Below are positions 41,628 to 55,623 of a DNA stretch of 64,000 nucleotides, piece by piece. The stretch's first letter is position 1, and each line of letters begins with the position of its first letter. The notes beneath the pieces are model-generated. The model was not told the DNA's origin. It worked only from the letters and a program-made list of their open reading frames with translations, and did not search any database. Source of the DNA: an uncultured Clostridia bacterium (GTDB taxonomy: Bacteria > Bacillota > Clostridia > Oscillospirales > Ruminococcaceae); assembly GCA_947631995.1 (NCBI GenBank), contig CANRNT010000009.1:956-64955 (forward strand), written 5' to 3'. The position numbers and the translations under genes were made by a program.

Positions 41628-41818
41628 ATATATTATTTTATCGTATATAATGCCAAATTTACGCTTTTTCTCCCCTACCCTATTTGATTTATATCAATTT
41701 ATCGTGCTTTTTATGCTCATGTTCTTAGAAGTAAGATTATCCGAAGCAGAGAGAAAAAAATCGCAGAAAAAAGAGTACGCAAAAGTAAGGAAACAAAGAA
41801 AAGTGAGTGATTGTACAT

Positions 41819-42571
41819 ATGAGCGAAGATGTTGTAGGAAATGTAGCATTGGCAGATGCCCCCGAAGTCATCGAAACTACTACCAATGCTCCTGTCAAGC
41901 TCGAATATAAAAAGAAGCCAGTTTACGATTTTGTAAAGCGCACTTTTGATATTGTGTTTTCTGTACTGGCCAGTATTGTTCTTTTAATCCCGATATTGAT
42001 CATTGCTATTATTATAATGCTTAAAGATCCTGGTAATCCGTTTTACTTACATACCCGTGTCGGCAAAGACCGCAAGCCTATAAAAATACTTAAGCTGAGA
42101 TCAATGCGCAAGGGCGCAGACAAGCTGGAAAACATGCTTACGCCAAAGCAGCTTGAGGAGTATAGCAGAGAATACAAGATACAGGACGATCCGAGGCTTA
42201 TCGGGTGGAAGAAAACAGGCGATGGCAGCAAATGTTTTGGCGCAAGGGTGCGGCAGTTTAGCCTTGACGAGATAATGCAGATACCATATAACATTTTAAT
42301 AAAAAATGATCTGTCGCTTGTTGGTCCGAGACCAATAATGGAAGATGAGTTAATGGCAAACTATACACCTGAGGAGCAAAAAATATTGCTTTCTGTCAAG
42401 CCAGGGCTAACAGGCTACTGGCAGGCATATGCGAGAAACAACGCAAAGTATGAAACTGGCGAACGGCAGAAAATGGAGCTTTATTACATAGAAAGGCGCT
42501 CTTTCTTAATGGATATAAAGATTATTTTAGCTACCGTATCAGCAGTAGTAAGGAAAAATGGAGCAAAGTAA
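41819..42571 (+). CDS. Small monotopic phosphoglycosyl transferase (bacterial sugar transferase, PglC/EpsL-like priming enzyme)
   Basis: Re-entrant helix FDIVFSVLASIVLLIPILIIAI, KLRSM, DPR..., SLDEI...LSLVGPRP and KPGLTGYWQ motifs. Start is ATG 41819, or alternatively GTG 41807. Confidence 0.9.
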   Translation: MSEDVVGNVALADAPEVIETTTNAPVKLEYKKKPVYDFVKRTFDIVFSVLASIVLLIPILIIAIIIMLKDPGNPFYLHTRVGKDRKPIKILKLRSMRKGADKLENMLTPKQLEEYSREYKIQDDPRLIGWKKTGDGSKCFGARVRQFSLDEIMQIPYNILIKNDLSLVGPRPIMEDELMANYTPEEQKILLSVKPGLTGYWQAYARNNAKYETGERQKMELYYIERRSFLMDIKIILATVSAVVRKNGAK

Positions 42572-42573: not shown

Positions 42574-43126
42574 ATGGATAGAAATACTTTAATAAAAATC
42601 AGATGTTATTTGATTTTAAATCCGATTAAAAGAACAAAGTACCTTATTAAAAAAGGAGTATTTAATTCTGTTGGAAAAAACTTTTATTTTTGTCCGAGAA
42701 AAATACCGCAGGATCCGATGCTAATCAGATTTGGCGATAATGTCAAAGTAGCAACAGATGTGTTTTTTGTCACACATGACATTATTCATGATATGGTAAA
42801 TGATATTGAGCCGCCTTTTTCAGACAATAAGCTGGGTAAAGAATTCGGATGTATCGAAGTTAAGAATAATGTTTTTATCGGAGCAGGCTCTATAATTCTG
42901 CCTAATGTTACAATTGGTCCTGATGTAATAGTTGCTGCTGGCAGCGTAGTGACAAAATCTTTCGCGGGGGGTAATAATTGGCGGCAACCCTGCACGTGTA
43001 ATTGGCAGTGTTGAGGATTTGATAAAAAGACGTATAGCGCAAAATCTTGAAAATCCACGTTATAACAATAGGTTTTTTGAAGCAAGACGTCTTTGGACGA
43101 TATGGGATAATGAGGACATTAAATAG
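42574..43126 (+). pseudogene. Hexapeptide-repeat (LbH) acetyltransferase, reading frame broken at a G6 tract (42966-42971)
   Basis: Frame 1 (42574..43014) ends in the nonsense tail GGNNWRQPCTCNWQC*. The +1 frame from 42971 reads VIIGGNPARVIGSVEDLIKRRIAQNLENPRYNNRFFEARRLWTIWDNEDIK* (stop at 43124-43126), which is the canonical acetyltransferase C-terminus. Removing one G restores a product of about 183 aa. Confidence 0.7.
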
Positions 43127-44333
43127 TTTAAGCATATCTGAGTACTGTGGCAAAGGAGGAGAGATTACGAACAAAGGCAAGCTTAGAAGCAAAGTTGCTT
43201 ATATATTAAAACATAATAAGGTGTTATTGACTATCTATAAAACGATAATGAGTGCAGCAATAAAAACGCTAGGAATATTTGTCAAGCGTGATGACTTTCT
43301 CGCTCTGTTTGTTTCGTATAGCGGAAAAAAGTTTGATGACAGTCCACGGGTGTTGTTCGAAGCCATGAAAGCCGATCAACGATTCAAAGGTTTTCATTTT
43401 GTGTGGGCTTTTGAAGAACCTACAAAGTTTAAAATAGAAAATGCAGATACAGTAAGAATAGATTCTTTAAAATATTTTATAACAGCTTTAAAGGCCAAAA
43501 TATGGATAACAAACGTAAATATAGAACGCGGTTTGAATTTCAAAAAGAAAGGGACAATTTTTTTAAATTCTTGGCATGGGACAGGCCCCAAAAAGAACGG
43601 CAATGCCATTAAGACAAGAAATGACTACGATTTTTCAAATGTAGATATTTTTTGCTGTGATGGCGAATACACAAAGAGTCACTTTGTAAAGTGGTTTAAT
43701 GTCCGTGAATCCTCTATGCTGTGGTGCGGAAGACCGCGCGAAGATGAACTATTTGAATTTACGGATGCAGATACGATCAGAATCAGAAAAAAACTGAATA
43801 TTCCCGATGAAAAGCAGGTTCTGTTGTATATGCCTACGTGGAGAGACTATAAGAATTCAGACGCTGATTACTCTTTATGGGAAAAGAGGCTCTGCGATAA
43901 ATATGTTCTTTTGTGCAGAACTCACCACTTTGATATAAAAGTGAAAAGCGTTGAAAATTCAAACGGTTTTTTCATTGATGTTACAACATATCCCGATGTC
44001 AATGAACTGTATTGGGTGGCTGATATATTGATATCAGATTATTCCAGCGCTTTTTTTGACTTTGGCCTTTTAGGAAAACCGATGTTTTGTTTTGCAAACG
44101 ATTATGATAAATTTGCCTCTATTACAGGGCTGTTTATAGATTTAAGATCTGAGTTTCCAAACGGTATAATGGAATCTGACGAGGATTTGATTTCTGCTAT
44201 ATGCAAAATGGATTATGACAAGGAGTGTCAGAAAGTCAAACAATATGTGGCAAAATATGTGTCACACCCCGTGAACGCAACTCAAGCATGTTTAGATAGA
44301 ATGTATGAATTGCTTTGCAAGAAGCTGAGCTAA
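43110..44333 (+). CDS. CDP-glycerol/alditol-phosphate glycerophosphotransferase family protein (TagB/TagF-like)
   Basis: FVSYSGKKFDDSPRVLFEAM, WITNVN, LNSWHGTGPKK, YMPTWRD and LISDYSSAFFDF motifs of the TagF family. The start is uncertain: ATG 43110 is chosen, and the ORF is open from 43047. Confidence 0.8.
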   Translation: MRTLNSLSISEYCGKGGEITNKGKLRSKVAYILKHNKVLLTIYKTIMSAAIKTLGIFVKRDDFLALFVSYSGKKFDDSPRVLFEAMKADQRFKGFHFVWAFEEPTKFKIENADTVRIDSLKYFITALKAKIWITNVNIERGLNFKKKGTIFLNSWHGTGPKKNGNAIKTRNDYDFSNVDIFCCDGEYTKSHFVKWFNVRESSMLWCGRPREDELFEFTDADTIRIRKKLNIPDEKQVLLYMPTWRDYKNSDADYSLWEKRLCDKYVLLCRTHHFDIKVKSVENSNGFFIDVTTYPDVNELYWVADILISDYSSAFFDFGLLGKPMFCFANDYDKFASITGLFIDLRSEFPNGIMESDEDLISAICKMDYDKECQKVKQYVAKYVSHPVNATQACLDRMYELLCKKLS

Positions 44334-44382
44334 CGATAAGTTATGCCATATTGATATAAGCAAAAAAAGACGGTGAAGTCAA

Positions 44383-44832
44383 ATGAAAATTGCAATAGGA
44401 AACGACAGGCAAGGACTCCTTTTAAAAAAAGACTTATTGATTTGGCTGAGTGAAAGCGGCCATGAAGTGACAGACGTCGGAACAAACGAAGATGTTCCTT
44501 GCGATTACCCCATATTTGCTGAGAAAGTCGCGAATCTTGTTTCAAGCGGAGAATGTGAAAGGGGCATTGTTATATGCGCTACGGGCATAGGTATATCCAT
44601 TGCGGCCAATAAAGTTGACGGAATTCGCTGCGGTTTGGCATATGATGATGAAGTGACAAAACTTATGAGGCAACATAATGATGCTAACATGATTGCTTTC
44701 GGTCAAAGGTTTATGTATTTAGAAGATGTCAAGAGAAGACTGGAAATCTTTCTTGATACCGATTTTTCGGGAGGATATCATCAGGAAAGGATAAATCTTA
44801 TATCTCAAATAGAAGAAAGACAGAGGGCATGA
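44383..44832 (+). CDS. RpiB/LacA/LacB-family sugar-phosphate isomerase (divergent active-site motif)
   Basis: MKIAIGND...GIVICATGIGISIAANKV.GIR...HNDANMIAFG matches the RpiB fold. The N-terminal motif reads NDRQG where typical RpiB has SDHAG. Confidence 0.8.
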   Translation: MKIAIGNDRQGLLLKKDLLIWLSESGHEVTDVGTNEDVPCDYPIFAEKVANLVSSGECERGIVICATGIGISIAANKVDGIRCGLAYDDEVTKLMRQHNDANMIAFGQRFMYLEDVKRRLEIFLDTDFSGGYHQERINLISQIEERQRA

Positions 44833-44836
44833 AATA

Positions 44837-45550
44837 GTGAAAGTAAGTGTAGTGATACTTGCCGGAGGTACTGGCAGCAGAATGAAAATAGATATCCCCA
44901 AGCAATTTATTCAGGTCGATGATGTTCCGGTGATCGTAAACACAATCAGCAATTTCCAAAACAATACTCGAATCAACGACATTATCGTCGTTTGTTTGAA
45001 GGATTGGATCGGTTATTTACAGGAACTTGTCATGAAATATCATCTTGATAAAGTAATAAACATTGTCGAAGGTGGTGCTACGGGACATGATTCTACAAGA
45101 AATGGTATTTTTTCTCTATCGGAAACGATGAATGAAGATGATATCGTCGTGATTCATGACGCCGCTCGCCCGCTTATTCCTCAATTGATTATCAACGATA
45201 TGCTGGATACTGCAATCAAGCATGGAAATGCCTGTACTGCAATCAAGGTTCATGACACAGTCATTATTACCGAAGATCAGCAATCAGGTGATACACAAAT
45301 TGAACGCAGCAAAATCATGAGAGTACAAACGCCGCAGGCATACAGATATGGGACGATAAAGAATTTATATCAGCGTGCGGATAAGGAAAACAGACATGAT
45401 TTTATTTATGCCAACACAATGGCTATTACATACGGGGAACGAATTTATTTTTCCACGGGTTTTGACTGCAACATCAAATTGACCACCAAAGAAGATTTGG
45501 CATTTTACAAAGCAATGAAACAATTCAGTGAAGAGGAGTTAACCAAATGA
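44837..45550 (+). CDS. IspD/TarI-family cytidylyltransferase
   Basis: VVILAGGTGSRM...PKQF N-terminal signature, 237 aa. GTG start 4 nt after the preceding stop. Confidence 0.85.
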   Translation: MKVSVVILAGGTGSRMKIDIPKQFIQVDDVPVIVNTISNFQNNTRINDIIVVCLKDWIGYLQELVMKYHLDKVINIVEGGATGHDSTRNGIFSLSETMNEDDIVVIHDAARPLIPQLIINDMLDTAIKHGNACTAIKVHDTVIITEDQQSGDTQIERSKIMRVQTPQAYRYGTIKNLYQRADKENRHDFIYANTMAITYGERIYFSTGFDCNIKLTTKEDLAFYKAMKQFSEEELTK

Positions 45551-46578
45551 TTCTTTCGCCCATCGAAATTAATGAGTTTAAAATATATACAGAGCGATAT
45601 TCGTTCATACCATTTATAAAGGACAAGACTTTTCTTATCACAGGAAGTAATGGAATGATCAGTTCAGGAATAATTAAGTGGATGCTTTATGAAAATAAAA
45701 TTCATGGTGCTAATTGCCGCATTTTTGCGTCTACAAGACATCCTGAGAACATGCCCGATTATCTTGAAACGGACGATAATGTTGTCATGTGTCAGTTTGG
45801 GGCGGAAAGTCAGACTATCGGAAAAGAAAAGATCGATTACATTATTCATGCTGCTGCACCGACGGGCAGAAAATATTTTATATCAAAACCTGTTGAAACT
45901 ATTCGGGTTATAGTAGACGAAACCGAGAGGATGCTTGATTTAGCCAAAGAGAAAAATGCGCAAATGGTTTATCTGTCGTCAGTTGAAGCCTACGGTATCC
46001 CAAACGCCGACATCCCGATCAAGGAGACCTATGTTGGTGCCGTGGACAGCTTAGATATAAGAAATGGGTATCCGATGGGAAAGAAGGCGGCCGAGTTTTT
46101 ATGCTATGCGATGAGTAAAGAGTACGGAGTGAATGTTTACATTGTCAGGCTATCGTCTGTACAGGGGCTGCTCCAGCCCTACAATGAACAGAGAATCTTT
46201 AACGAAATTCTACGATGTGTAATCGAGGGCAAGGACTTGATCATGAAGTCCGATGGGCTCAGCAAAAAGTCAATTGTCTATTCTCTTGATGCAATTAGTG
46301 GCATTTTTACTGTATTGTTCAAAGGTGTATCCGGCGAGGCGTACAATATCACGGACCCATCCACTTATATGACGATGCGTGATTTGACATCCTATGTATT
46401 TGAAAAGTTTAACCCAAATTTGCATATTATTTTCGATATAGAAGATACATCAAAAACCGGATATTTGCCACATCTGGAATTTACTCAGGACATAACGAAG
46501 CTTCAAAAGCTGGGCTGGAAGCCGATTTCCGATTTGGAACACATATACAAAACAGATTTATCGAGATTCGGAGGATAA
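45547..46578 (+). CDS. NAD(P)-dependent epimerase/dehydratase-family SDR (putative reductase)
   Basis: Rossmann motif ITGSNGMISSG, catalytic YPMGKKAAE (YxxxK). ATGA overlap with the upstream gene. Confidence 0.8.
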   Translation: MILSPIEINEFKIYTERYSFIPFIKDKTFLITGSNGMISSGIIKWMLYENKIHGANCRIFASTRHPENMPDYLETDDNVVMCQFGAESQTIGKEKIDYIIHAAAPTGRKYFISKPVETIRVIVDETERMLDLAKEKNAQMVYLSSVEAYGIPNADIPIKETYVGAVDSLDIRNGYPMGKKAAEFLCYAMSKEYGVNVYIVRLSSVQGLLQPYNEQRIFNEILRCVIEGKDLIMKSDGLSKKSIVYSLDAISGIFTVLFKGVSGEAYNITDPSTYMTMRDLTSYVFEKFNPNLHIIFDIEDTSKTGYLPHLEFTQDITKLQKLGWKPISDLEHIYKTDLSRFGG

Positions 46579-46581
46579 GAA

Positions 46582-48369
46582 ATGATATTAGATAAAGTCA
46601 CATCTCCTGCGGATTTAAAAAAGATTCCTGCTGATAAGCTTCCGGAGTTAGCGCAGGAAATCAGAACAGCTCTGATCAATAAAACAAGCAGCTTTGGCGG
46701 GCATCTGGGGTCAAACCTTGGCGTTGTTGAATTGACGATTGCGCTTCACTATGTGTTTGATTCGCCTAAGGACAAAATTGTCTTTGATGTTTCCCATCAA
46801 TGCTATGTTCATAAGATACTGACTGGAAGAAAGGCCGCTTATCTTGATGAAAAGCTTTATCGAAGCGTAACAGGTTATACAAATCCTAAAGAAAGCATTC
46901 ACGATCAGTTCAATGTTGGCCATACCTCCACTTCCATTAGCTTGGCTTGCGGACTTGCTAAAGGCAGAAACATCTGTAACAGAAAAGAAAAAATAATTGC
47001 CGTTATCGGCGACGCGGCTTTAGATGGAGGAGAAGCGTTTGAAGCTTTGAACTCAGCCGTTGAGATTTGCGGAGGTCTTATAGTCGTTGTAAATGATAAC
47101 GACATGTCAATACCTGAAAATCATGGAGCACTTTGTGCGCATCTTGCCGAGCTTCGTAAAAATGAGGGTAAATGTGCAAACAACTTCTTTAAAGTGCTCG
47201 GCTTTGACTATTATTTTGTAAAAGACGGGCACAATATCGGGGATTTAATTGAGACGTTTAATAAGGTAAAAGATATTACATGCCCTGTGGTAGTACATTG
47301 CGTTACGAAAAAGGGAAAAGGATATAGTTTTGCGGAAAACAATCCCGAAAAATGGCATTGGGCGCATCCATTCGATATAGGGACCGGGGAGTTTCACAAA
47401 AGTACCTCTGTTCCGAAGGAAAATTACGGCTCCATTGTTGGGCAATATTTGATGCAAAAAATTAAAAACGATCCTACTGTTGTGGCTATGACAGCGTCAG
47501 TACCAGCGTACATCGGGTTTAATGTACAGAGGAGAAAAGAAGCCGTAAGTCAGTATGTTGATGTGGGAATAGCGGAAGCTAACGGTGTTACTATGGCAGC
47601 TGCAATTGCCAAAAGCGGCGGGAAGCCGGTATTTGTTACGGGCAGCTCGTTTTATCAACGGGCTTACGACCAAATTGAGCAGGAAATGTGTATAAACCGA
47701 TGCGCCGCTACCATGCTTGTCGCATTTTCCGGCATCAACGGACATGACAGCGATGCACATGCCGGTCTATACGACATTGCCTTATTAGGCAATATTCCCG
47801 GATTGATCTATTTAGCTCCATCTAATAAGCAGGAGTATTTGGCAATGCTTGACTGGAGCATTGAGCAAAATGAAAGCCCTGTTGCGATCCGCATCCCTTG
47901 GAACGGCGTTTATTACACAGACAAGCCTGTTCCTCAAGAGTATTCCAAGACGAAATACATGGTCAGAAAGAGCGGGGCGCAAGTTGCAATTCTCGGTCTT
48001 GGAAGCTTCTATCAGCTGGCGGAGCAGGTTGCAGAGCTGATTAATAAAGAACTGCATATTGAACCGACACTTATTGACCCTATGTTTATTACCGGCGTGG
48101 ACAAGCAGTTGCTGGAAGATTTAAAGCATGATCACAAGCTGATTGTCACCTTGGAGGACGGCATCGTTTCCGGCGGCTTTGGCGCAAGAATTTCGCAGTT
48201 TTACGGTATAGATGATATGAAAGTAATAAATTGCGGATTCCATACCGAGGTGCCAACGCAATTTACAGTTGAAGAAATGATGGAGAAAAACGGTCTTATG
48301 CCGGAACAGATACTGCAAAGAGTTAAAGATGTACTCAGTGTCGATGAGGCGAGTGAGGAGAAAAAATGA
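46582..48369 (+). CDS. DXS-like ThDP-dependent enzyme (second copy, glycan-locus paralog)
   Basis: Shares long blocks with the housekeeping Dxs in this window (GGHLGSNLGVVELT, FDSPKDKIVFDVSHQCYVHKILTGR, VGIAE, transketolase-like C-terminal half). The ThDP motif reads GDAALDGG...NDNDMSI, i.e. GDA instead of GDG. Confidence 0.85.
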   Translation: MILDKVTSPADLKKIPADKLPELAQEIRTALINKTSSFGGHLGSNLGVVELTIALHYVFDSPKDKIVFDVSHQCYVHKILTGRKAAYLDEKLYRSVTGYTNPKESIHDQFNVGHTSTSISLACGLAKGRNICNRKEKIIAVIGDAALDGGEAFEALNSAVEICGGLIVVVNDNDMSIPENHGALCAHLAELRKNEGKCANNFFKVLGFDYYFVKDGHNIGDLIETFNKVKDITCPVVVHCVTKKGKGYSFAENNPEKWHWAHPFDIGTGEFHKSTSVPKENYGSIVGQYLMQKIKNDPTVVAMTASVPAYIGFNVQRRKEAVSQYVDVGIAEANGVTMAAAIAKSGGKPVFVTGSSFYQRAYDQIEQEMCINRCAATMLVAFSGINGHDSDAHAGLYDIALLGNIPGLIYLAPSNKQEYLAMLDWSIEQNESPVAIRIPWNGVYYTDKPVPQEYSKTKYMVRKSGAQVAILGLGSFYQLAEQVAELINKELHIEPTLIDPMFITGVDKQLLEDLKHDHKLIVTLEDGIVSGGFGARISQFYGIDDMKVINCGFHTEVPTQFTVEEMMEKNGLMPEQILQRVKDVLSVDEASEEKK

Positions 48370-49343
48370 ATCCTTTAATCAGTTTAGTAATACCTGTATA
48401 TAACGTAGAAAAATATTTAGATAAATGTATGAAATCGGTCCTTGCACAAACCTATGATAACTTTGAGGTCATACTTGTCGACGATGGCTCGACTGATAAT
48501 AGCGGGAAAATGTGCGATGAGTATGCGGATATGGATAGTAAGGTCACTGTTTACCATAAGGCTAACGGCGGGCTTTCCGATGCTAGAAATTTTGGCGTTG
48601 AGCGCTGTAATGCCGACTTAGTTTCGTTCATTGATTCCGACGACTATGTGACCGTGGATTATCTTGAATACCTTTGGTATTTGATGAAAAAGTACAATGT
48701 AGATATTGCTTGCGCGACGGCAAAGAGAATTATCGAAACGTCTAAAATAAAGAATGACGATAACGGCAGCGAGATACTGTTAGACAGTTCGGAGGCAATA
48801 AAAAGAATATGTTATACATCATGCAGCGCATGCGTACGCCTTTATAAGAAACAATTACTTGTTGATAATCCTTATCCCGAAGGAAGATTATACGAAGATC
48901 TTGCGGCCACATGTAAAATATACGGGAACATTTCAAAAAGCGTATTCGGAGGGAAGACAATATATTATTGGGTTCAGCGACAAGGAGGAATAACACATAG
49001 CGAGATCGATAAAAAACAGTATGATTTGTTTTGGGCTGCCGATGAACAATTTAATTATATTTCCGAAAACTTTCCGGGGTCTGAGAGTGCATCGCGCACA
49101 AGATGCGTCATGGCATCTTGTGATTTTGTTACGCGGCTCTTTGGCGGAAAAAACAAAGATATGAAGCAACATTTTAAATATGCAAAAGACTACGCAAAAA
49201 AGCACTTGAAATATATTATAAAAGACAAAAGCACACCAAAACATGTAATCATTTCTGGATTGACTATATGTATGGGGTATACGGCGTCAAGAATCCTATG
49301 GCCGTTCAGACAAAGAATCAGAAAGGCGATTAGGGGTATTTAA
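48366..49343 (+). CDS. Family 2 glycosyltransferase
   Basis: ISLVIPVYNVEKYL...VDDGSTD...DSDD motifs. ATGA overlap with the upstream gene. Confidence 0.9.
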   Translation: MNPLISLVIPVYNVEKYLDKCMKSVLAQTYDNFEVILVDDGSTDNSGKMCDEYADMDSKVTVYHKANGGLSDARNFGVERCNADLVSFIDSDDYVTVDYLEYLWYLMKKYNVDIACATAKRIIETSKIKNDDNGSEILLDSSEAIKRICYTSCSACVRLYKKQLLVDNPYPEGRLYEDLAATCKIYGNISKSVFGGKTIYYWVQRQGGITHSEIDKKQYDLFWAADEQFNYISENFPGSESASRTRCVMASCDFVTRLFGGKNKDMKQHFKYAKDYAKKHLKYIIKDKSTPKHVIISGLTICMGYTASRILWPFRQRIRKAIRGI

Positions 49344-49347: not shown

Positions 49348-50418
49348 ATGTGGACATATTTCATTGCCACGTTACTGTCGGTTATTATAACATGGTTTGC
49401 TGTAAAATTACATAATGACAACATGAAAGCTAATTACAACAAAAATGTTATAAGCTCAGTTTTTGCTGTAATGTCATGCCTACCGCTTTTAATTGTTATG
49501 GCAGTAAGAAAAGGAGTCGGCACAGACTATTGGAGCTATCGAATATGGTTTAGCTCAAGTAATAGGGATGACTTGGAAATAGGATTTAAAACATTAAACA
49601 ACATTTTAAATATTATTTTCGGCGACCCTCAAAGCATATATATTGTTTGCGCAATCATAATATGCGGATTGTATTTTTATATGATTTATAAAGAGTCGAT
49701 ATCTCCGATTTACAGTGTGTTGCTTTTTGTTATATCGAAGGATTATTTTATAGCTATGAACGGCATGAGGCAATATGTGGCAGGGGCTATAGCTATGATG
49801 GCGTTCCCATATTTTAAAAAAAGAGATTGGAAAAAGTCGCTCCTAATTATTTTTATTGCATTTTTGTTCCATAAATCTGTCGTTATTCTAGTTGCTTTAT
49901 ATATTTTGATGGATATTGACATACATCCTGCTTGGGCAGTGGGTGTATTTGCGGGATTAGTATTGTTTTCAAATACAATAAAGAGGGTTATATTCCCCAT
50001 AATGAACAAAATCGGGTTTTATTCTAAATATCTTTCCACAACATCCCATTACAACAACTCCCAAGGAGAGTTTAACTGGCATGCCATACTGATATTTATG
50101 TGCTTTTTCATTCTGATTACGTATGAATATAAAAAGGTCAAAGCAAATCAGAGTCTGAAATTAGTTTACAGCGCGGTTTTGATAAGTCTGTTTATTGCTT
50201 CAATAGGTTCTATTCTGCCCCTTAATGCGCATCGTTTGACGTGGTATATGAATTCAGTTCTTGTACTGTATATACCGGAGGTTACACGGTCTTTAAGCGA
50301 CAAAAGGCTGAGAATGATCGTAGACATCATGATTATATTTGCATTTACGATTACTACTTTAATTGACATTTTAAACGGAAATCAGAATGTTATTCCGTAT
50401 CAGTCGATTTGGTCATAA
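49348..50418 (+). CDS. EpsG-family membrane protein (putative Wzy-type polymerase)
   Basis: About 10 TMs. The GxDYxxY-like motif (GTDYWSY) and MRQ..A motif are typical of the EpsG family. Confidence 0.75.
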   Translation: MWTYFIATLLSVIITWFAVKLHNDNMKANYNKNVISSVFAVMSCLPLLIVMAVRKGVGTDYWSYRIWFSSSNRDDLEIGFKTLNNILNIIFGDPQSIYIVCAIIICGLYFYMIYKESISPIYSVLLFVISKDYFIAMNGMRQYVAGAIAMMAFPYFKKRDWKKSLLIIFIAFLFHKSVVILVALYILMDIDIHPAWAVGVFAGLVLFSNTIKRVIFPIMNKIGFYSKYLSTTSHYNNSQGEFNWHAILIFMCFFILITYEYKKVKANQSLKLVYSAVLISLFIASIGSILPLNAHRLTWYMNSVLVLYIPEVTRSLSDKRLRMIVDIMIIFAFTITTLIDILNGNQNVIPYQSIWS

Positions 50419-50557
50419 AAATCGCCATGTTACCAATGCGCGATGCTTTTAGCGAATAAATTTTTGAATCCGAGGGAATATGCAACCGCTAAATAACCGT
50501 TTGTTTTAGAAGTTGAGAAGAGCGATGGTTAAAAATTTCATAGAGGATGGTGAAAAG

Positions 50558-51376
50558 ATGATACCTAAAATAATCCACTACTGTTGGTTCGGCGGAAAGC
50601 CATTGCCTGAATTGGCTCAGAAATGTATCGAGAGTTGGAAAAAATATTGTCCCGGTTACGAAATAAAACGGTGGGACGAAACTAATTTTGATATCAACTG
50701 TTGTGACTATGTACGCGAGGCATATGAGGCAAAGATGTGGGCTTTTGTCAGTGATTATGCAAGGTTCAAAATTCTTTATGAAAATGGCGGCGTTTACTTT
50801 GACACCGATGTGGAGCTTATAAAGCCCATAGACGACATCATTGCAAAAGGGTCTTTTATGGGTCTTGAAAAGTCAAGAAAGGAACACACAGCCCCCGGGC
50901 TCGGCCTGGCGGCCAACGCCGGGCTCGGCCTGGCGAAAGAAGTACTTGATAGCTATCATAATTCGCATTTTGAAAAAGACGAGAATGGGTCTTATGAAAC
51001 TGTCGTGACAAGAGTAACAAACATTATTTTAAAACATGGGGATATAAATCGTGATACAATAACAGAAATAGCAGAGATAACGATCTATCCGCCGGAATAC
51101 TTTTGCCCACTTAACTATTATACAGGTGAGATGAATATCACGGAAAATACAAGATCAATTCATCATTATATGGCAAGTTGGATTATTCCGGAGAGCAGAG
51201 TGGCACTATTAGTAAAGAAAAAGCTTTGCAGTAAAGGCGGAGTCCGAAAAGTTATTGGAAATATACTGGTCTTTGTATTAAGGGCTATAGGAAAGGTAAG
51301 AAAATTGGGAATCAGGAAAAGTTTAGAGTACATATTGAATAAGATCAAAATTACAAAATTTGGTTCGGGGGGGTAA
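50558..51376 (+). CDS. GT32-like glycosyltransferase (sugar-binding DXD family), copy 1
   Basis: IPKIIHYCWFGGKPLPE...ESWKKYCPGYEIKRWDE and DTD motif. Start trimmed to ATG 50558. Confidence 0.8.
   Translation: MIPKIIHYCWFGGKPLPELAQKCIESWKKYCPGYEIKRWDETNFDINCCDYVREAYEAKMWAFVSDYARFKILYENGGVYFDTDVELIKPIDDIIAKGSFMGLEKSRKEHTAPGLGLAANAGLGLAKEVLDSYHNSHFEKDENGSYETVVTRVTNIILKHGDINRDTITEIAEITIYPPEYFCPLNYYTGEMNITENTRSIHHYMASWIIPESRVALLVKKKLCSKGGVRKVIGNILVFVLRAIGKVRKLGIRKSLEYILNKIKITKFGSGG
50895..50935 (+). repeat. In-frame GC-rich direct repeat inside GT32-like copy 1
   Basis: CCGGGCTCGGCCTGGCG occurs at 50895-50911 and again at 50919-50935 (period 24 nt). It encodes PGLGLAAN-AGLGLA. The paralog lacks it. 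Confidence 0.9.
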
Positions 51377-51425
51377 TAACCTCATCTGAATATTATGCAT
51401 TGCACCTTCAAGTCGGAGGTGCGGC

Positions 51426-52217
51426 ATGATACCAAAAATAATTCATTATTGCTGGTTCGGCAAAAATCCTTTGCCGGAGCTCGCGCAGAAATGCATAGAG
51501 AGTTGGAAAAAGTATTGCCCTGACTATGAGATCAAACGGTGGGACGAGACTAATTTCGACTTGAATTACAATGCTTACGTTCGAGAAGCATATAATGCAA
51601 AGAAGTGGGCATTTGTAACGGACGTTGTTCGTCTTTATGCGTTGGTCAACTATGGCGGAATATATATGGATACCGATGTCGAGGTGATAAAACCCTTAGA
51701 TGATTTTTTGAAATATGAGGCTTTTTCCGGATTTGAATCACAAACCGAGATCCCTACAGGAATAATGGCAAGCGAAAATAATCAAGATCTTTTTATAGAA
51801 CTATTAGATGAATACAATGATGAGCATTTTTTAAATTCTGACGGTACATATAATGCTACTACAAACGTGATACGAATTACAAATACATGCTTAAAATATG
51901 GTTTTATCCCAAATAACAAATTTCAAATAATACGAGGTTTCGCTTTCTTCCCAAAAGACTATTTTTGTCCAAAAGATTATAAAACAAGAATAATTACTAT
52001 AACTAAAAACACATATACCATTCATCATTTTGATGGTTCATGGCTGAGTAAAGAAAAAAGATTAGCTAATCAATTGCAAACCAAATATCAGAAGTTTTTG
52101 CCGGTGCCAATAGCTCATTATTATGCAGAGTTTATTGCTATAAAACGCATACATGGTTTTAAGTCAGGCTTATTAGAAGTAAAGAATTGGATAAAAAACA
52201 AACTGAGTAAAAATTAG
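51426..52217 (+). CDS. GT32-like glycosyltransferase, copy 2
   Basis: The N-terminal 47 aa are nearly identical to copy 1 (MIPKIIHYCWFGKNPLPELAQKCIESWKKYCPDYEIKRWDETNFD). DTD motif present. Confidence 0.8.
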   Translation: MIPKIIHYCWFGKNPLPELAQKCIESWKKYCPDYEIKRWDETNFDLNYNAYVREAYNAKKWAFVTDVVRLYALVNYGGIYMDTDVEVIKPLDDFLKYEAFSGFESQTEIPTGIMASENNQDLFIELLDEYNDEHFLNSDGTYNATTNVIRITNTCLKYGFIPNNKFQIIRGFAFFPKDYFCPKDYKTRIITITKNTYTIHHFDGSWLSKEKRLANQLQTKYQKFLPVPIAHYYAEFIAIKRIHGFKSGLLEVKNWIKNKLSKN

Positions 52218-52231
52218 GAGAAACGTCGCAT

Positions 52232-53323
52232 ATGAAAACCATTCTTCTCGTCTTCGGCACACGACCCGAAGCGATAAAGATGTGCCCGCTTGTGAATGAA
52301 CTGAAGCGGCACAGCGAAATAAACACAATAGTTTGCGTAACAGGTCAGCACCGACAGATGCTGGATCAGGTTCTTGAAGCTTTCAATGTTGTTCCCGACT
52401 ATGACCTCTCAATTATGAAGGACAAGCAGACGCTTTTTGATATCACAACGAACATTCTGAACCGCATAAAGGAAGTCCTCGAAGAAGTAAAGCCCGATGT
52501 TGTGCTTGTTCACGGTGATACCACGACTACTTTCGTGACCGCGCTCGCGTGCTTCTATTTGCAGATACCCGTAGGTCACGTTGAGGCTGGTCTTCGTACA
52601 TACAACATATACAGCCCCTACCCCGAGGAATTCAACCGTCAGGCGGTAAGCATTATAAGTCGGTACAATTTCGCGCCGACAGAGCTTTCAAAGCAGAATC
52701 TTATCCGCGAGGGGAAAGACGAAAGTACTATCTATGTTACAGGCAACACGGCGATAGATGCGCTGAAGACTACGGTTCGTGAAAATTATCACCACCCCGA
52801 GCTTGACTGGGCAAACGGCAGCAGGCTGATACTCATTACCGCCCACCGCAGAGAAAATCTCGGCGAGCCTATGAAGCATATGTTTCGCGCAATCCGCCGA
52901 GTAATGGACGAGCACCCCGATGTTAAGGCAATTTATCCGATACATATGAATCCGATTGTCAGAGAAACGGCAGATGCGATTCTGGGCGGCGATGAGAGGA
53001 TACATATTATAGAACCACTCGACGTGCTTGATTTTCATAATTTTATGGCACGCAGCTATTTGATACTGACCGACAGCGGCGGAATACAGGAAGAAGCGCC
53101 GAGCCTTGGCAAGCCTGTGCTTGTTATGCGCGATACGACCGAGAGACCTGAGGGTATCAAGGCAGGAACGCTGAAGCTCGTCGGCACGGACGAAGAAACG
53201 ATCTATGCAGAATTCAAACGCCTGCTGACCGACAAGGAAGCGTATGACGCTATGTCTAAGGCGAGCAATCCGTATGGGGATGGACATGCGTGTGAGAGGA
53301 TAACCGCAATTATATTAAGTTAA
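52232..53323 (+). CDS. wecB: UDP-N-acetylglucosamine 2-epimerase (non-hydrolysing type by resemblance)
   Basis: FGTRPEAIKM, VHGDTTT, HVEAGLRT, TDSGGIQEEAP and ERPEG motifs. Confidence 0.9.
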   Translation: MKTILLVFGTRPEAIKMCPLVNELKRHSEINTIVCVTGQHRQMLDQVLEAFNVVPDYDLSIMKDKQTLFDITTNILNRIKEVLEEVKPDVVLVHGDTTTTFVTALACFYLQIPVGHVEAGLRTYNIYSPYPEEFNRQAVSIISRYNFAPTELSKQNLIREGKDESTIYVTGNTAIDALKTTVRENYHHPELDWANGSRLILITAHRRENLGEPMKHMFRAIRRVMDEHPDVKAIYPIHMNPIVRETADAILGGDERIHIIEPLDVLDFHNFMARSYLILTDSGGIQEEAPSLGKPVLVMRDTTERPEGIKAGTLKLVGTDEETIYAEFKRLLTDKEAYDAMSKASNPYGDGHACERITAIILS

Positions 53324-53344
53324 TAAATGTAAAGGAGTGTTAGA

Positions 53345-54184
53345 ATGATCCGTAAAATAAAACATATAGTTAAACCAATTATTGTGTTTCTATTTCATTT
53401 TATTTCGGTCATCTATGTTACAATAACAGGAAAAAGGAAAGAATCAGATACTTATTTAAATAATGTTAAAGATAAATACAAGGGTCAAAGGTGTTTTGTT
53501 ATAGGCAATGGACCGAGCTTGACTGCAAAAGATCTTGACAAACTGAAGAATGAAGTAACATTTGCATCTAACAGGATATATAAAATATTTGATCAGACAG
53601 ACTGGAGACCAACATATTTTACGATATTTGATGAGGGCGTAGGAAGAAGTGAAGGTGTAATAGATGGAATAAACTCATTTAAATGTGAAATGAAATTTGT
53701 TAGAGAAGAAGGGCAGTATATATTTGGTAAAATAAAAGGTCCTGTATGTTATGTTCGCTCGCTTTCTTCAAGAAAATATCTCGACAACCCGAATTTTTCC
53801 GAAGATATGACTGAAAAAACATATTCTATTGCAACTGTAACATATATTTCACTCCAGCTTGCACGGCATATGGGTTTTTCCGAAATTTATTTGTTAGGAA
53901 TGGATAACCAATATGCATTTTCTATGCTCAAAGATGGAACTATTGTTAAAAGTGACAATGGTAAAAACTATTTCAGTGATAAAGATGGTGAAAGTCAAAA
54001 GAAACATGAGCAGATTCCAAAATATGCACCGGCAACGTGGGAAATGGATGTAGCATACAGTTTTGCAGAAAAATACTCACGAGAGCATGGATTTAGGATA
54101 TACAATGCAACTCGTGGCGGCAAACTTGAAGTTTTTGAACGCATGGATTTTGACAGCTTGTTTCCGGAAGAAGATAAAAAATGA
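53345..54184 (+). CDS. DUF115 / MptE-like (GT42 CstII-like architecture) putative glycosyltransferase
   Basis: CFVIGNGPSL near the N-terminus and ...LARHMGFSEIYLLGMDNQY parallel the GNGPSL and GYKEIYLSGID motifs of CstII / Maf-type proteins. Confidence 0.6.
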   Translation: MIRKIKHIVKPIIVFLFHFISVIYVTITGKRKESDTYLNNVKDKYKGQRCFVIGNGPSLTAKDLDKLKNEVTFASNRIYKIFDQTDWRPTYFTIFDEGVGRSEGVIDGINSFKCEMKFVREEGQYIFGKIKGPVCYVRSLSSRKYLDNPNFSEDMTEKTYSIATVTYISLQLARHMGFSEIYLLGMDNQYAFSMLKDGTIVKSDNGKNYFSDKDGESQKKHEQIPKYAPATWEMDVAYSFAEKYSREHGFRIYNATRGGKLEVFERMDFDSLFPEEDKK

Positions 54185-55623
54185 ATATTTTATCAAAATA
54201 TAAAAGTTTGCCAACCCAAGTAAAAGCCACAATCTGGTTTGTAGCTTGCCAAGCAATTCAAAGCGGCTGCCGTTTTCTTGCAATGCCCTTTCTGGTGCGC
54301 CTGCTGACAACCGAACAGTACGGTATCTACAGTGTGTTTTTATCATGGCTGCAAATCATAACTTTATTTGCAACTTTGAATTTACATTGTGGCGTTTATA
54401 ACAATGCCATGTACAAATTTCCTGACCGCAGAAGCAGCTATACATCGGCATCGCAAAGCTTGTCCGTAGTCTGCACTTTTCTCTGCTTTGGAATCTATTT
54501 AATATTTCAAAATGCGTGGGATATGCTCTTTGGCATAAAACCTCTGTATGTTGTTCTTATTTTTGTTCAGCTATTGTTTACAGAGAGTTTCATGCTTTGG
54601 TCAGGTCGGCAACGATATGAATACAGATATATCAATCTGCTGATTTATACCGCCTTACTTGCTGTACTATACATGATTTTCCCCGTTGCAACGGCAGCAA
54701 TTTTTCCACAAGAACAGAGATTGACTGCTGTAATTGTAAGCGGTGTAATTGTTCATGCCGGTATAGGTCTTGGATTCATGATTTACAACTATATCAAAGG
54801 CAAGACATTTTATAATCGTGAATATTGGGGCTACTCTCTGAAATTCAATATTCCGCTGATACCGCACTATCTGTCTGGTATTGTTCTCGGACAAGCTGAT
54901 CGCATAATGATAAAAAAGTATATTGGCACGGCAGAAGCAGGTATTTACAGCTTTACATACAATATTTCACTTGTAATCAATATTATTACCGGTTCAATCA
55001 ATAATGCAATTGTCCCATATACTTATGAAAAACTAAAAAACAGGGATTACAAAAATCTAAAGAAAATATCTATTTTTCTTTTACTTATGATCGGCGGAAT
55101 GTGCCTTTCATTTTCGGCAATTGCTCCGGAATTACTGAAAATATTTGCAACAGAAGAATATTATGATGCAGTTTATCTTGTTCCGGTTATTTGTCTGAGT
55201 TCATACTTCACATTTCTTTACAGTTTGTTTGGAAACATCGAATTTTTCTTTGAAGCAAATAAATTTATCACAATGGCATCAATTACCGGCGCGGTCGTTA
55301 ATGTTATCTTAAATTACGTTTTAATGCCGATTTTCGGCTATTATGCGGCTGGATATACAACGCTTTTCTGCTATATTGTGTTCAGTCTGGGACATTACAT
55401 TTTTATGCGTATCGTTTGTAAGAAAAAGATTGACGGTGATAAAGTATACAATGGCACTGCAATTCTGTTGATTTCCATTGCATTTGTACTGTTGGCATTT
55501 GGTATGATGTTGATTTACGATTATCCGCTGATTCGCTACACGCTGATTCTTATAGCAATTGTGGTTTGCTTTATGAGGCGTGAACGTATCATAGGCTATT
55601 TTAAGATGATAAAGGAGAAATAA
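54181..55623 (+). CDS. Wzx-type oligosaccharide flippase (MOP superfamily)
   Basis: 480 aa, about 12-14 TMs, typical polysaccharide-biosynthesis-protein layout. ATGA overlap with the upstream gene. Confidence 0.8.
   Translation: MNILSKYKSLPTQVKATIWFVACQAIQSGCRFLAMPFLVRLLTTEQYGIYSVFLSWLQIITLFATLNLHCGVYNNAMYKFPDRRSSYTSASQSLSVVCTFLCFGIYLIFQNAWDMLFGIKPLYVVLIFVQLLFTESFMLWSGRQRYEYRYINLLIYTALLAVLYMIFPVATAAIFPQEQRLTAVIVSGVIVHAGIGLGFMIYNYIKGKTFYNREYWGYSLKFNIPLIPHYLSGIVLGQADRIMIKKYIGTAEAGIYSFTYNISLVINIITGSINNAIVPYTYEKLKNRDYKNLKKISIFLLLMIGGMCLSFSAIAPELLKIFATEEYYDAVYLVPVICLSSYFTFLYSLFGNIEFFFEANKFITMASITGAVVNVILNYVLMPIFGYYAAGYTTLFCYIVFSLGHYIFMRIVCKKKIDGDKVYNGTAILLISIAFVLLAFGMMLIYDYPLIRYTLILIAIVVCFMRRERIIGYFKMIKEK

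Follow-up and report, generated by a model that had tools for sequence, protein, structure and literature searches.

A DXS-like enzyme in a CDP-alditol-type module of a Clostridia glycan locus

Gene content of the locus

We analyzed a window of 64,000 nucleotides from an uncultured Clostridia bacterium (GenBank assembly GCA_947631995.1, contig CANRNT010000009.1). Its glycan genes include a TagF-like phosphotransferase, an RpiB-like isomerase, a cytidylyltransferase, a short-chain dehydrogenase/reductase (SDR), and a thiamine diphosphate (ThDP) enzyme resembling DXS, the synthase that makes 1-deoxy-D-xylulose-5-phosphate (Table 1). ORFs of the cassette region matched their Pfam and NCBIfam families with E values from 1e-28 to 1e-241. 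Direct reading of the sequence revealed two ATGA overlaps, one at 45547 joining the cytidylyltransferase stop to the SDR start and one at 48366 joining the end of the DXS-like gene to the start of the GT2 gene. The ORF listing and this reading placed every ORF, motif, and overlap where an earlier note on this DNA had put them, and the Pfam and NCBIfam matches bore out the families that it had assigned to the neighbors of the ThDP gene (SDR, GT2, IspD/TarI-like, RpiB-like, and TagF-like). Chance is ruled out as the source of this pattern of ORFs, motifs, and overlaps.

The TagF-like ORF (43047..44333) opens with a TTG at 43047; its start is probably the ATG at 43110, where the earlier note had also begun it, and a 91% identical homolog in locus L081 is called at 405 aa. 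Judged by their families, the genes downstream of the GT2 gene show a putative Wzy/flippase-type heteropolysaccharide locus. The GT2 gene, translationally coupled to the DXS-like gene, is kept solely in the closest locus, L081, and is locus context outside the conserved cassette set.

Table 1. Coordinates and family assignments of the cassette genes, their surroundings, and the comparison copy of dxs
Feature	Position	Strand	Profile match
Housekeeping dxs, comparison copy outside the cassette	16347..18200	-	TIGR00204 653 bits
Bac_transf initiating phosphoglycosyl transferase	41807..42571	+	PF02397 152 bits
Hexapeptide acetyltransferase	42574..43014	+	PF00132 42 bits
TagF/TarF-like CDP-polyol phosphotransferase	43110..44333	+	PF04464 Glyphos_transf 240 bits
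RpiB-like sugar-phosphate isomerase, cassette-specific "R/Y" subtype	44383..44832	+	TIGR01120 rpiB 146.8 (cutoff 138.65)
TarI/IspD-family cytidylyltransferase	44837..45550	+	PF01128 142 bits
Extended SDR, predicted CDP-ketose reductase	45547..46578	+	PF01370 99 bits
DXS-like ThDP-dependent carboligase (predicted), 595 aa	46582..48369	+	NF008968 803 bits (cutoff 510)
GT2 glycosyltransferase	48366..49343	+	PF00535 132 bits
EpsG-type polymerase	49348..50418	+	
Downstream region with EpsG-type polymerase, two Gly_transf_sug/Caps_synth glycosyltransferases, WecB 2-epimerase, MptE-like protein, and Polysacc_synt flippase	49348..55623	+	

The DXS-like protein and its clade

As the earlier note had recognized, the window carries two DXS-type genes: one in the classical context, which we read as xseA-xseB-ispA-dxs-tlyA(FtsJ/S4)-nadK-argR, and the paralog described here. 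The two proteins are 34% identical and share the blocks GGHL(G/A)SNLGVVELT and FDSPKDKIV(F/W)DVSHQ(C/S)Y(V/T)HKILTGR, and the paralog is without ∼36 residues found in dxs after position ∼190. Alignment reproduced the reported change of the ThDP motif, which reads GDAA in the paralog vs. GDGA in dxs. In addition to NF008968, the paralog passes TIGR00204 (485 bits; cutoff 466), and it contains the Pfam domain DXP_synthase_N (289 bits) together with Transket_pyr and Transketolase_C; transketolase models gave at most 114 bits against cutoffs of at least 488. A short-form protein named DXS (PDB ID code 9KPQ) matched it with 672 bits, and NCBI gives its relatives the name DXS. These scores assign the paralog to the short DXS-like subfamily NF008968/PRK12315, distinct from ordinary dxs; this subfamily existed already and lay beyond the sight of the earlier note.

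A neighbor-joining tree without support values set the paralog apart from ordinary dxs, in a separate clade within NF008968. This clade is monophyletic and comprises 122 presumed cassette-type sequences, as opposed to 80 non-cassette NF008968 homologs, with the cassette-type assignment of P0001-P0120 checked directly for a minority only. Signatures of the clade are the change from GDG to GD(A/S) (121 of 122) and, at E. coli positions 426 and 440, His and Trp (122 of 122 each). Non-cassette NF008968 homologs of ∼50% identity adjoin MerR, AraC, and flavodoxin genes, without glycan genes.

Comparison with DXS residues gave a divided answer. The catalytic and cofactor residues are kept, with the equivalents of His49, His80, Asp152, Asn181, His299, Glu370, Arg398, and His431 invariant in the clade. 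In contrast, Arg420 and Arg478 are missing across the whole NF008968 subfamily and Tyr392 is missing in the cassette clade; we take these three to be the residues by which canonical DXS binds the phosphate of glyceraldehyde-3-phosphate (GAP). Their loss makes GAP insecure as the acceptor, and a CDP-linked or other aldose may possibly take its place.

The kept catalytic residues, the TIGR00204 score, and the NCBI names would all suit an ordinary second DXS that, perhaps with a second IspD, simply increases MEP flux to the undecaprenyl-phosphate carrier while glycan is being made or provides DXP for thiamine. We consider this highly improbable. A normal dxs remains in its usual operon, so that the paralog is not needed for the isoprenoid pathway, and the cassette clade is linked to TagF, TarI-like, and SDR genes rather than to isoprenoid genes. 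Moreover, dxr and ispE-H were not found in the cassette, its cytidylyltransferase resembles TarI and stays under the cutoffs for IspD, and an AHAS-like enzyme can replace the DXS-like one (see below).

Partner enzymes and conservation of the cassette

The cytidylyltransferase falls under all NCBIfam cutoffs (IspD, 174 against 253; ribitol-5-phosphate cytidylyltransferase, 161.8 against 166). The solved structures closest to it are ribitol-5-phosphate cytidylyltransferases [PDB ID codes 4JIS (124 bits), 6XHP, and 2VSH], and E. coli IspD gave only 41 bits, which places it nearer the C5-specific TarI enzymes than IspD. It is predicted to join a ketose- or polyol-phosphate with CTP to form a CDP-linked intermediate. 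The SDR passes no NCBIfam model, and its translation contains the TGxxGxxG and YxxxK motifs. Its closest solved structure (146.7 bits) is the NADPH-dependent CDP-6-D-fructose reductase of Campylobacter jejuni HS:5 (PDB ID codes 8V4G/8V4H; PMC10918830). PF01128 and PF01370 pairs produce CDP-glucitol and CDP-mannitol (PMC10918830), and a passage of PMC10118250 cites AbpA/AbpB as producing CDP-arabinitol. The cassette's IspD and SDR resemble these characterized pairs, and the known routes akin to the cassette consist of a cytidylyltransferase and a CDP-ketose reductase.

The RpiB-like protein passes the rpiB model and matches Clostridium thermocellum RpiB (PDB ID code 3HE8) with 134 bits. Alignment confirmed the unusual N-terminal NDRQG that the earlier note had read: GNDRQG stands where E. 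coli has GCDHVG and C. thermocellum GSDHGG. The protein retains Cys66, Thr68, His99, Asn100, and Arg137 (E. coli numbering), and three changes covary (His10 to Arg, Arg133 to Tyr/His, and Arg40 to Pro), with Arg at position 10 in 102 of the 120 closest homologs. These substitutions point to a remodeled phosphate site. A ThDP enzyme was present in all 11 R/Y-type contexts examined. The RpiB-like gene is, nevertheless, an optional member, which the earlier note could not have known: cassettes L094 and L178 lack it and still have an IspD and an SDR with 54-59% identity to those of the window, and in P0215, it is fused to the SDR. The fusion and the absences argue that RpiB would act on an intermediate, leaving the chain length unchanged.

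We found the cassette in seven verified DXS-like contexts with 56-90% identity of the DXS-like protein and four gene orders. It contains TagF, IspD, SDR, and DXS-like genes, usually with RpiB, and it lies in glycan loci that are otherwise unrelated (L081, L082-84, L085/86, L087/88, L001, L094, L178, and L180), in both capsule-type and flagellin-adjacent settings. A further 17 DXS-like and SDR matches share a longest contig of the same size and were counted for the conserved cassette. The conserved five-gene cassette is a feature of gut Clostridia. This synteny, together with the likeness of the SDR to a CDP-ketose reductase and of the cytidylyltransferase to TarI, upholds the central claim of the earlier note that a DXS-type enzyme is wired into a CDP-alditol-type module.

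In four cassettes (L091, L174, L175/176, and L179), an AHAS-like ThDP enzyme stands in place of the DXS-like one, scoring 369 bits on TIGR00118, under its cutoff of 538. The surrounding genes are orthologous, with 74% identity between the IspD of L179 and L085 and 70% between the RpiB of L176 and L085. The DXS and AHAS families have in common the decarboxylation of a 2-oxoacid followed by C–C ligation. The replacement, thus, implies that the ThDP step is integral to the cassette, and that step would most likely be carboligation of a pyruvate-derived C2 unit rather than a transketolase-type supply of pentose.

The same replacement disfavors a suggestion of the earlier note, that the DXS-like enzyme acts as a transketolase and, with RpiB, feeds xylulose-5-phosphate or ribulose-5-phosphate to an AbpA/AbpB-like pair for ordinary CDP-arabinitol or CDP-ribitol; we know of no AHAS-family enzyme with a transketolase reaction. 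DXS and transketolase are homologous, the paralog has Transket_pyr and Transketolase_C domains, precursor-supply genes are frequent in glycan loci, and L177 has a cassette-type SDR (56% identical) with IspD and without any ThDP enzyme. We, nevertheless, judge such a private supply improbable: DXP_synthase_N and transketolase scores make the paralog clearly DXS-type, and pentulose phosphates are already central metabolites. The SDR is absent from cassette L179, and this absence, together with the arrangement in L177, indicates a module with more plasticity than one linear pathway would have.

A candidate route to a CDP-1-deoxy-pentitol

We tentatively propose that 43110..48369 is a mobile conserved cassette for the synthesis and installation of a CDP-activated polyol phosphate, with a skeleton supplied by a ThDP carboligase rather than by central metabolism and CDP-1-deoxy-pentitol as its likely product. 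A CDP-activated 1-deoxy-pentulose or 1-deoxy-pentitol phosphate was one of three readings offered by the earlier note, and it is the best supported of them.

We infer the substrates, the order of steps, the role of RpiB, and the product as follows. The DXS-like enzyme would decarboxylate pyruvate and join the C2 unit to GAP or its CDP-linked form, giving DXP (the 5-phosphate of 1-deoxy-D-xylulose) or a close analogue. DXP is the 1-deoxy analogue of xylulose-5-phosphate, the substrate of AbpA. The TarI-like enzyme would couple the ketose phosphate to CMP, and the SDR would then act on the open-chain CDP-ketose, reducing its methyl-ketone carbonyl to yield CDP-1-deoxy-pentitol. Where present, the R/Y-type RpiB-like enzyme may shift or epimerize the α-hydroxy-ketone before reduction, leading to a different stereoisomer. 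We searched the literature and found no description of this DXS-containing CDP-polyol route, in agreement with the earlier note, which knew of no route with a DXS-type enzyme. Counting against the proposal, our search found no report of a 1-deoxy-pentitol phosphate in a bacterial glycan, and an RpiB-type enzyme working through an enediol on a 1-deoxy-2-ketose would have no precedent known to us.

YerE, the ThDP enzyme known for sugar branching, is AHAS-like and acts on a CDP-linked keto sugar ahead of a reductase. By analogy, and in line with a second reading of the earlier note (yersiniose-type branching), a pentulose-5-phosphate, such as ribulose-5-phosphate formed by the RpiB-like enzyme, could be cytidylylated first; the ThDP enzyme would attach a C2 unit from pyruvate at the CDP-ketose carbonyl, and the SDR would reduce the new acetyl group to give a branched-chain CDP-polyol. 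The AHAS-like enzymes in four cassettes fit this scheme, as do the clade's loss of Arg420, Arg478, and Tyr392 and its gain of the invariant aromatic or His residues Trp440, His388, and Tyr358, which could accommodate a nucleotide, and RpiB would gain an ordinary upstream role. However, L094 and L178 do without RpiB, and its phosphate site is remodeled rather than ordinary. The acceptors known for DXS-family enzymes are aldehydes rather than ketones. Yersiniose-type CDP-glucose pathway genes were not found in the cassette. We, therefore, regard branching as doubtful.

Changes in the RpiB phosphate site and in the DXS-like acceptor pocket could also signal other substrates, for RpiB one that is not ribose-5-phosphate. 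RpiB might then make an unusual aldose phosphate, such as arabinose-5-phosphate or a tetrose-4-phosphate, to which the ThDP enzyme would add two carbons, giving a 1-deoxy-hexulose or -heptulose phosphate en route to CDP-1-deoxy-hexitol or -heptitol, and the closest characterized SDR does act on a C6 open-chain CDP-ketose. Such extension seems unlikely to us: the IspD and SDR of the RpiB-less cassettes are similar enough to those of the window to suggest that substrate size is the same, C5-specific TarI enzymes are the nearest relatives of the cytidylyltransferase, and the RpiB–SDR fusion better matches consecutive late steps than a first and a last one.

If the CDP-1-deoxy-pentitol model is correct, capsules and flagella would be decorated with an undescribed CDP-activated deoxy-sugar-alcohol phosphate. 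The TagF-like enzyme would take deoxy-pentitol phosphate from its CDP donor and attach it to a repeat-unit glycan as a phosphodiester-linked substituent, the acceptor being a Wzy/flippase-type polysaccharide here and probably a flagellin glycan in other loci. It scores 174 bits on the TarF model NF041712, under the cutoff of 550, and a Glyphos_transf gene lies within or beside every examined cassette with a sufficiently long contig. TagF-like proteins of different cassettes have only about 25% identity, which would be in keeping with different acceptor glycans.

The DXS-like protein and its relatives

ORF calling with Pfam and NCBIfam searches recovered every ORF, family, and motif described in the earlier note, and all families in the consecutive run from the TagF-like protein to the EpsG polymerase were assigned at very low E-values. 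Direct reading of the sequence confirmed both ATGA overlaps, at the DXS-like/GT2 and IspD/SDR junctions. The housekeeping dxs indeed lies in its classical context, with the order xseA-xseB-ispA-dxs-tlyA-nadK-argR. The DXS-like paralog is 34% identical to it, lacks ∼36 residues after position ∼190, and has the long N-terminal DXS blocks in common with it; its ThDP motif reads GDAA, in contrast to GDGA in dxs.

Positions of features in the window and in related database loci
Feature	Locus	Position	Strand	Basis or remark
Housekeeping dxs	window	16347..18200	-	TIGR00204, 653.2 bits
TagF-like protein	window	43047/43110..44333	+	consecutive ORF; Pfam/NCBIfam
RpiB-like protein	window	44383..44832	+	consecutive ORF; Pfam/NCBIfam
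IspD/TarI-like cytidylyltransferase	window	44837..45550	+	consecutive ORF; PF01128
Extended SDR	window	45547..46578	+	consecutive ORF; PF01370
DXS-like protein, 595 aa	window	46582..48369	+	consecutive ORF; NF008968
GT2	window	48366..49343	+	consecutive ORF; Pfam/NCBIfam
EpsG polymerase	window	49348..50418	+	consecutive ORF; Pfam/NCBIfam
MptE-like (DUF115), CTP_transf_3 cytidylyltransferase, 525-aa HMGL-like enzyme, HAD phosphatase	window	53345..58502	+	four genes in a row
Phosphonate-like module	window	59588..63898	+	
690-aa NTP_transf_3 + CTP_transf_like + PEP mutase fusion	window	within 59588..63898	+	
Fe-alcohol dehydrogenase	window	61612..62766	+	
Phosphonopyruvate-decarboxylase-like ThDP enzyme	window	62759..63898	+	third ThDP enzyme of the window
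Flagellin gene	L091	1..1635		adjoins cassette locus
SDR::RpiB fusion (P0215)	L091	8001..9542		SDR, residues 1-341; R/Y-type RpiB, residues 351-495
HMGL-like::MptE-like fusion with HpcH aldolase and HAD	L099	2897..6136		distant marine locus
SDR, IspD, second SDR, TagF-like gene, bifunctional IspD::adh_short	L177	9001..15268		first SDR 56% identical to the window's
Flagellin gene	L178	388..1218		adjoins cassette locus
TagF-IspD-RpiB-AHAS-like	L179	5030..13803		no SDR

The best model for the DXS-like protein is NF008968/PRK12315 (802.8 against a cutoff of 510), and its score together with the shortened loop region places it in that subfamily. The canonical DXS model TIGR00204 (EC 2.2.1.7) passes narrowly and in two stretches (484.9 against 465.95). 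A match at 672 bits is PDB ID code 9KPQ, a solved protein of the short form that carries the name DXS; it is identical to a Bacteroides xylanisolvens homolog within the aligned blocks inspected, and literature searches found no publication linked to the entry.

We mapped residues in E. coli DXS numbering. The cofactor and catalytic residues His49, His80, Asp152, Asn181, His299, Glu370, Arg398, and His431 are invariant. In the ThDP/Mg2+ motif GDG...NDN, the Asp and Asn residues are present, and GDG reads GDA in the window protein. The cassette clade (n = 122, the membership of most database matches being assigned by sequence only) is monophyletic with respect to 80 non-cassette homologs in a neighbor-joining tree without support values; its members are 58–100% identical to the window protein, against 44–55% for the other group. 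GD(A/S) replaces GDG in 121 of the 122, whereas GDG is kept in 78 of 78 of the non-cassette group. Arg420, Arg478, and Tyr392, which we take from the structural and mutagenesis literature to be the GAP phosphate-binding residues of canonical DXS, are missing across the clade: in the window protein, Arg420 is Phe, Tyr392 is Gly, and Arg478 has no counterpart (IRIPW). Further clade-specific changes are Tyr392 to Asn, Gly, or Glu, Leu396 to Tyr, an invariant His at position 426, and an invariant Trp440. At the AVRYPRG motif of E. coli, the window’s housekeeping DXS has AVRYPKG, so that its Arg478 equivalent is Lys.

The earlier note had asked whether the paralog might be an ordinary DXS or lack key residues. 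It clusters outside ordinary DXS, and its catalytic residues are retained in a core that is clearly constrained; the phosphate-site residues are lost. Because Arg420, Arg478, and Tyr392 are lost and aromatic and His residues are gained in the pocket, the acceptor may differ from free GAP and may, for example, be CDP-linked as in yersiniose-like chemistry.

The ∼36-residue deletion and the loss of Arg420 and Arg478, which are absent from the entire short subfamily, are features that the window protein shares with that subfamily, of which 9KPQ and the copy on pSOL1 of C. acetobutylicum are examples; the cassette proteins differ in forming their own clade, with GD(A/S) and their own pocket residues. 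A genome-collection scan with the DXS-like alignment returned mostly ∼50%-identical NF008968 homologs from many phyla, adjoining MerR, AraC, or flavodoxin genes and not glycan genes; its only cassette was L001, and the remaining homologs defined the outgroup. These non-cassette proteins are very widespread, occurring in Firmicutes, Bacteroidota, Treponema, Melainabacteria, Bifidobacterium, enterococci, and lactobacilli as well as on pSOL1. Examples among loci L002–L080 come from Ruminococcus bromii (L018), Bacteroides xylanisolvens (L027), Enterococcus (L063), and [Ruminococcus] torques (L072); CMD/cupin genes are also among the neighbors, and plasmid-borne members were found (matches H1–H12). 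The plasmid search gave non-cassette or canonical DXS only; among its matches there was no named organism whose EPS structure is known. The non-cassette family lacks equivalents of E. coli Arg420 and Arg478, and for its members, 9KPQ included, the name DXS may misstate the real acceptor.

Conservation of the cassette and its ThDP slot

A neighborhood search of the kind proposed in the earlier note gave the same partners in seven further independent cassette-clade contexts besides the window; two arrangements are new. The window order, TagF-RpiB-IspD-SDR-DXSL (DXSL being the DXS-like protein), recurs in L081 (90% identical) and L082–84 (70%, in a Wzz/CpsD/CpsB/LytR-type locus). L085/86 (63%), L087/88 (58%), and L001, where no TagF was detected, have TagF-IspD-RpiB-DXSL-SDR. 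L180 reads RpiB-acyltransferase-IspD-SDR-DXSL-TagF, and L094 and L178 have TagF-IspD-SDR-DXSL with a long TagF and without RpiB. The carriers are mostly metagenome contigs, the named ones being Lachnospiraceae MAGs. Seventeen DXS-like and SDR database matches agree in the length of their longest contig, which indicates further co-occurrences, the SDR search gave more than 120 clusters at 50% identity or above to the window SDR, and one DXS-like variant is present in 72 collection blocks. A metagenome scan with the SDR alignment yielded few close relatives and mostly distant SDRs in unrelated sugar pathways; two loci from it, L099 and L113, were set aside as resembling other keto-acid or yersiniose-type modules. 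No DXR-family ORF occurs in any cassette examined.

We examined 14 distinct contexts that have a cassette-type SDR or an R/Y-type RpiB, the cassette-specific subtype; in 13 of them the cassette also keeps a ThDP carboligase. The exception, L177, pairs a cassette-type SDR with IspD and lacks both the ThDP enzyme and RpiB. Its IspD::adh_short protein has what we take to be the architecture of a Bcs1-like CDP-ribitol synthase, and the locus may hold two different CDP-alditol routes.

The DXS-like slot is not always held by a DXS-like protein. In L091, L174, L175/176, and L179 it is filled by an AHAS-like ThDP enzyme of 578–581 aa (TPP_enzyme_N/M/C), whose TIGR00118 score of 369 bits misses the cutoff of 538 and whose best solved relative is AHAS II. 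The L091 example came from the SDR search, through the SDR::RpiB fusion P0215. The DXS-like and AHAS-like enzymes have no detectable similarity to each other. IspD is 74% identical between L179 and L085, RpiB is 70% identical between L176 and L085, and the SDRs of the two cassette types are 46–70% identical throughout; the partner genes of both types are orthologous and interleaved. In nature, then, one pathway slot of the cassette is held by either of two unrelated ThDP families, a notable instance of analogous enzyme replacement.

Enzymes of the DXS and AHAS families decarboxylate a 2-oxoacid, normally pyruvate, and ligate the resulting C2 unit, with a carbonyl compound as acceptor. Two ThDP families in one slot of one cassette imply this shared reaction, and the ThDP step is on that ground integral to the pathway. 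The same shared chemistry argues against a transketolase-like supply of pentose phosphate, one of the readings raised in the earlier note. We also rejected a nonligating ThDP decarboxylase that would give an aldose phosphate for RpiB, as each plausible 2-oxoacid phosphate would lead to an ordinary central metabolite.

L179, which has no SDR, is otherwise window-like: it contains a Caps_synth GT, a WecB epimerase, and a PEP mutase module. Either a gene at another site supplies its reductase, or the ketose phosphate is transferred without being reduced. At L091 and L178, GT2-TPR and FkbM-type methyltransferases lie near the flagellin genes. Given flagellin genes next to cassette loci, flagellin glycans, and not capsules, may be what carries the predicted polyol phosphate in some bacteria.

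Partner enzymes and the predicted pathway

The cytidylyltransferase falls short of IspD proper (TIGR00453, 167.2 against 181.3; NF001186, 174 against 253) and scores 124 bits with ribitol-5-phosphate cytidylyltransferase structures, compared with 41 bits with E. coli IspD. The closest solved relative of the window SDR is 8V4G/8V4H (146.7 bits); 8V4G is the NADPH-dependent CDP-6-D-fructose reductase HS5.17 of C. jejuni HS:5 (PMC10918830). The general pairing is that a PF01128 enzyme activates a ketose phosphate and a PF01370 SDR reduces the open-chain CDP-ketose (PMC10918830). Characterized pairs are HS5.18/HS5.17 for CDP-6-D-glucitol, Mnp1/Mnp2 of S. pneumoniae 35A for CDP-mannitol (cited in PMC10918830), and AbpA/AbpB of 17F for CDP-D-arabinitol (cited in PMC10118250). 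The cassette resembles them in its adjacent PF01128 and extended PF01370 genes, in the homology of its SDR to a characterized CDP-ketose reductase, and in a phosphotransferase that then installs the polyol phosphate.

The difference lies in the origin of the carbon skeleton. AbpA/AbpB follow the same cytidylyltransferase-plus-reductase logic and draw on the central metabolite xylulose-5-phosphate (Xu5P), the substrate of AbpA. The HS5 and Mnp pairs draw on F6P (PMC10918830). Environmental IspD-SDR pairs without a ThDP enzyme also occur (L097, L098, L100, L101, and L103). In contrast to a route that starts from a central metabolite with no skeleton-building enzyme, the cassette adds a dedicated, conserved ThDP carboligase and, in most cases, an isomerase of the RpiB-like kind, which implies that the ketose phosphate is not otherwise supplied by the cell. 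The earlier note knew of no described route with a DXS-type enzyme, and our full-text literature searches likewise gave no description of a DXS-like, RpiB-like, IspD-like, and SDR cassette and no report of a deoxy-pentitol phosphate in a glycan; the neighborhood analysis in the C. jejuni paper mentions no such cassette neighbors (PMC10918830). The cassette combines the known cytidylyltransferase and CDP-ketose reductase logic with an added ThDP skeleton-building step and an added isomerase, and its predicted product is new.

The substrates throughout are ones that we infer. The ThDP enzyme would form DXP, or a compound closely analogous to it, from a pyruvate-derived C2 unit and glyceraldehyde-3-phosphate; the TarI-like enzyme would convert this to a CDP-ketose; the SDR would reduce the methyl ketone to a CDP-1-deoxy-pentitol; and the TagF-like enzyme would install deoxy-pentitol phosphate on the glycan. 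Support for this version comes from DXP being the 1-deoxy analogue of the AbpA substrate, and from the order of cytidylylation and carboligation making no difference to the end product.

The RpiB-like protein scores 146.8 on TIGR01120 (cutoff, 138.65) and keeps the catalytic residues Cys66, Thr68, His99, and Asn100. Its N-terminal motif is aberrant, as the earlier note had remarked, reading GNDRQG against GCDHVG in E. coli and GSDHGG in C. thermocellum. His10, Arg133, and Arg40, presumably the phosphate-site residues of RpiB structures, are replaced by Arg, by Tyr or His (Tyr in the window), and by Pro, and these changes covary across ∼100 homolog clusters; Arg occupies position 10 in 102 of the 120 closest. 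A ThDP enzyme accompanied R/Y-type RpiB in 11 of 11 contexts examined. RpiB is an optional member (absent from L094 and L178) and is once naturally fused to the SDR, and RpiB-less cassettes use IspD and SDR orthologs 54–59% identical to the window’s. We infer from this that it isomerizes or epimerizes the α-hydroxy-ketone just before reduction, setting a different stereoisomer, and do not think that it supplies a longer acceptor.

TagF-like proteins are only ∼25% identical between cassettes, which is what differing acceptor glycans would lead one to expect, and the window’s lies below the TarF, TarL, and TarB equivalog cutoffs. Since the window locus is of the Wzy/flippase type, we expect the glycan to carry one substituent and not a chain of poly(alditol phosphate). 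A CDP-activated donor and a TagF-family phosphotransferase also characterize TarI/TarJ/TarL, TagF, and C. difficile CD0242/CD0244. In the type A flagellin glycan, the proposed role of CD0244 is to move phospho-threonine from its CDP-threonine donor to flagellin GlcNAc (PMC10714395), and some cassettes are likewise flagellin-adjacent. The cassette donor differs in being a predicted ThDP-derived deoxy-polyol.

Yersiniose biosynthesis offers the alternative in which the acceptor is nucleotide-linked. In the YerE/YerF system, a CDP-linked sugar receives the pyruvate C2 unit from a ThDP enzyme, after which the new carbonyl is reduced by a reductase, and the AHAS-like enzyme of the variant cassettes is a point of likeness. 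The cassette, however, contains no genes for a glucose-1-phosphate cytidylyltransferase, a 4,6-dehydratase, or 3-deoxygenation; it has a cytidylyltransferase of the polyol/ketose-5-phosphate type, and its final enzyme is a TagF-like phosphotransferase where the yersiniose route has a glycosyltransferase. Yersiniose-type architecture was seen in the distant locus L113.

The DXP-based route also parallels the MEP pathway (DXS, DXR/IspC, and IspD, leading to CDP-methylerythritol) in its order of carboligase, isomerase plus reductase, and cytidylyltransferase, in its CDP-linked C5 polyol end product, and in the homology of its ThDP enzyme and cytidylyltransferase to DXS and IspD. It differs in lacking DXR, in whose place stand an RpiB-type isomerase, whose enediol chemistry would give no methyl branch, and an extended SDR; its cytidylyltransferase is closer to TarI, and its output would pass to a TagF-like transferase, not IspE. 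A re-purposed look-alike of the MEP pathway for surface glycans in gut Clostridia can be drawn from this parallel. A ThDP carboligase, recruited independently from DXS-like and AHAS-like families, would build a DXP-type acyloin; R/Y-type RpiB and the extended SDR, split or sometimes fused, would act as a nonhomologous counterpart of DXR to give a 1-deoxy-pentitol stereoisomer; the TarI-like enzyme would turn this into a CDP donor; and the TagF-like enzyme would attach it to capsules and flagellin glycans. We regard this scheme as possible but less likely than not. The idea that RpiB and SDR make MEP itself was dropped as a leading one, enediol isomerase chemistry giving no methyl branch, and is kept only within this scheme.

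Implications and neighboring modules

If the DXP-based model is true, a surface-glycan unit would be built de novo by ThDP carboligation and not from a central sugar phosphate. The CDP-alditol pathways, so far for ribitol, arabinitol, mannitol, and glucitol, would gain a further branch, and the capsules and flagella of abundant gut Clostridia would bear a new epitope, a methyl-terminated deoxy-polyol phosphate. The MEP-like scheme, if true, would define a class of surface decoration not known before, with methyl-terminated polyol phosphates, and serotype-like diversity would arise from whether or not the isomerase is present. Current DXS, RpiB, and IspD names can mislead reconstructions of isoprenoid and pentose metabolism, and for inhibitor screens, the cassette shows which DXS-like proteins should not be assumed to be the essential DXS.

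Two further modules lie downstream in the window. The phosphonate-like module looks like one for nucleotide-activated 2-hydroxyethylphosphonate decoration of the same glycan. The MptE-like to HAD phosphatase row may be another keto-acid sugar or acid-decoration module; in the distant marine locus L099, HMGL-like and MptE-like domains are fused.
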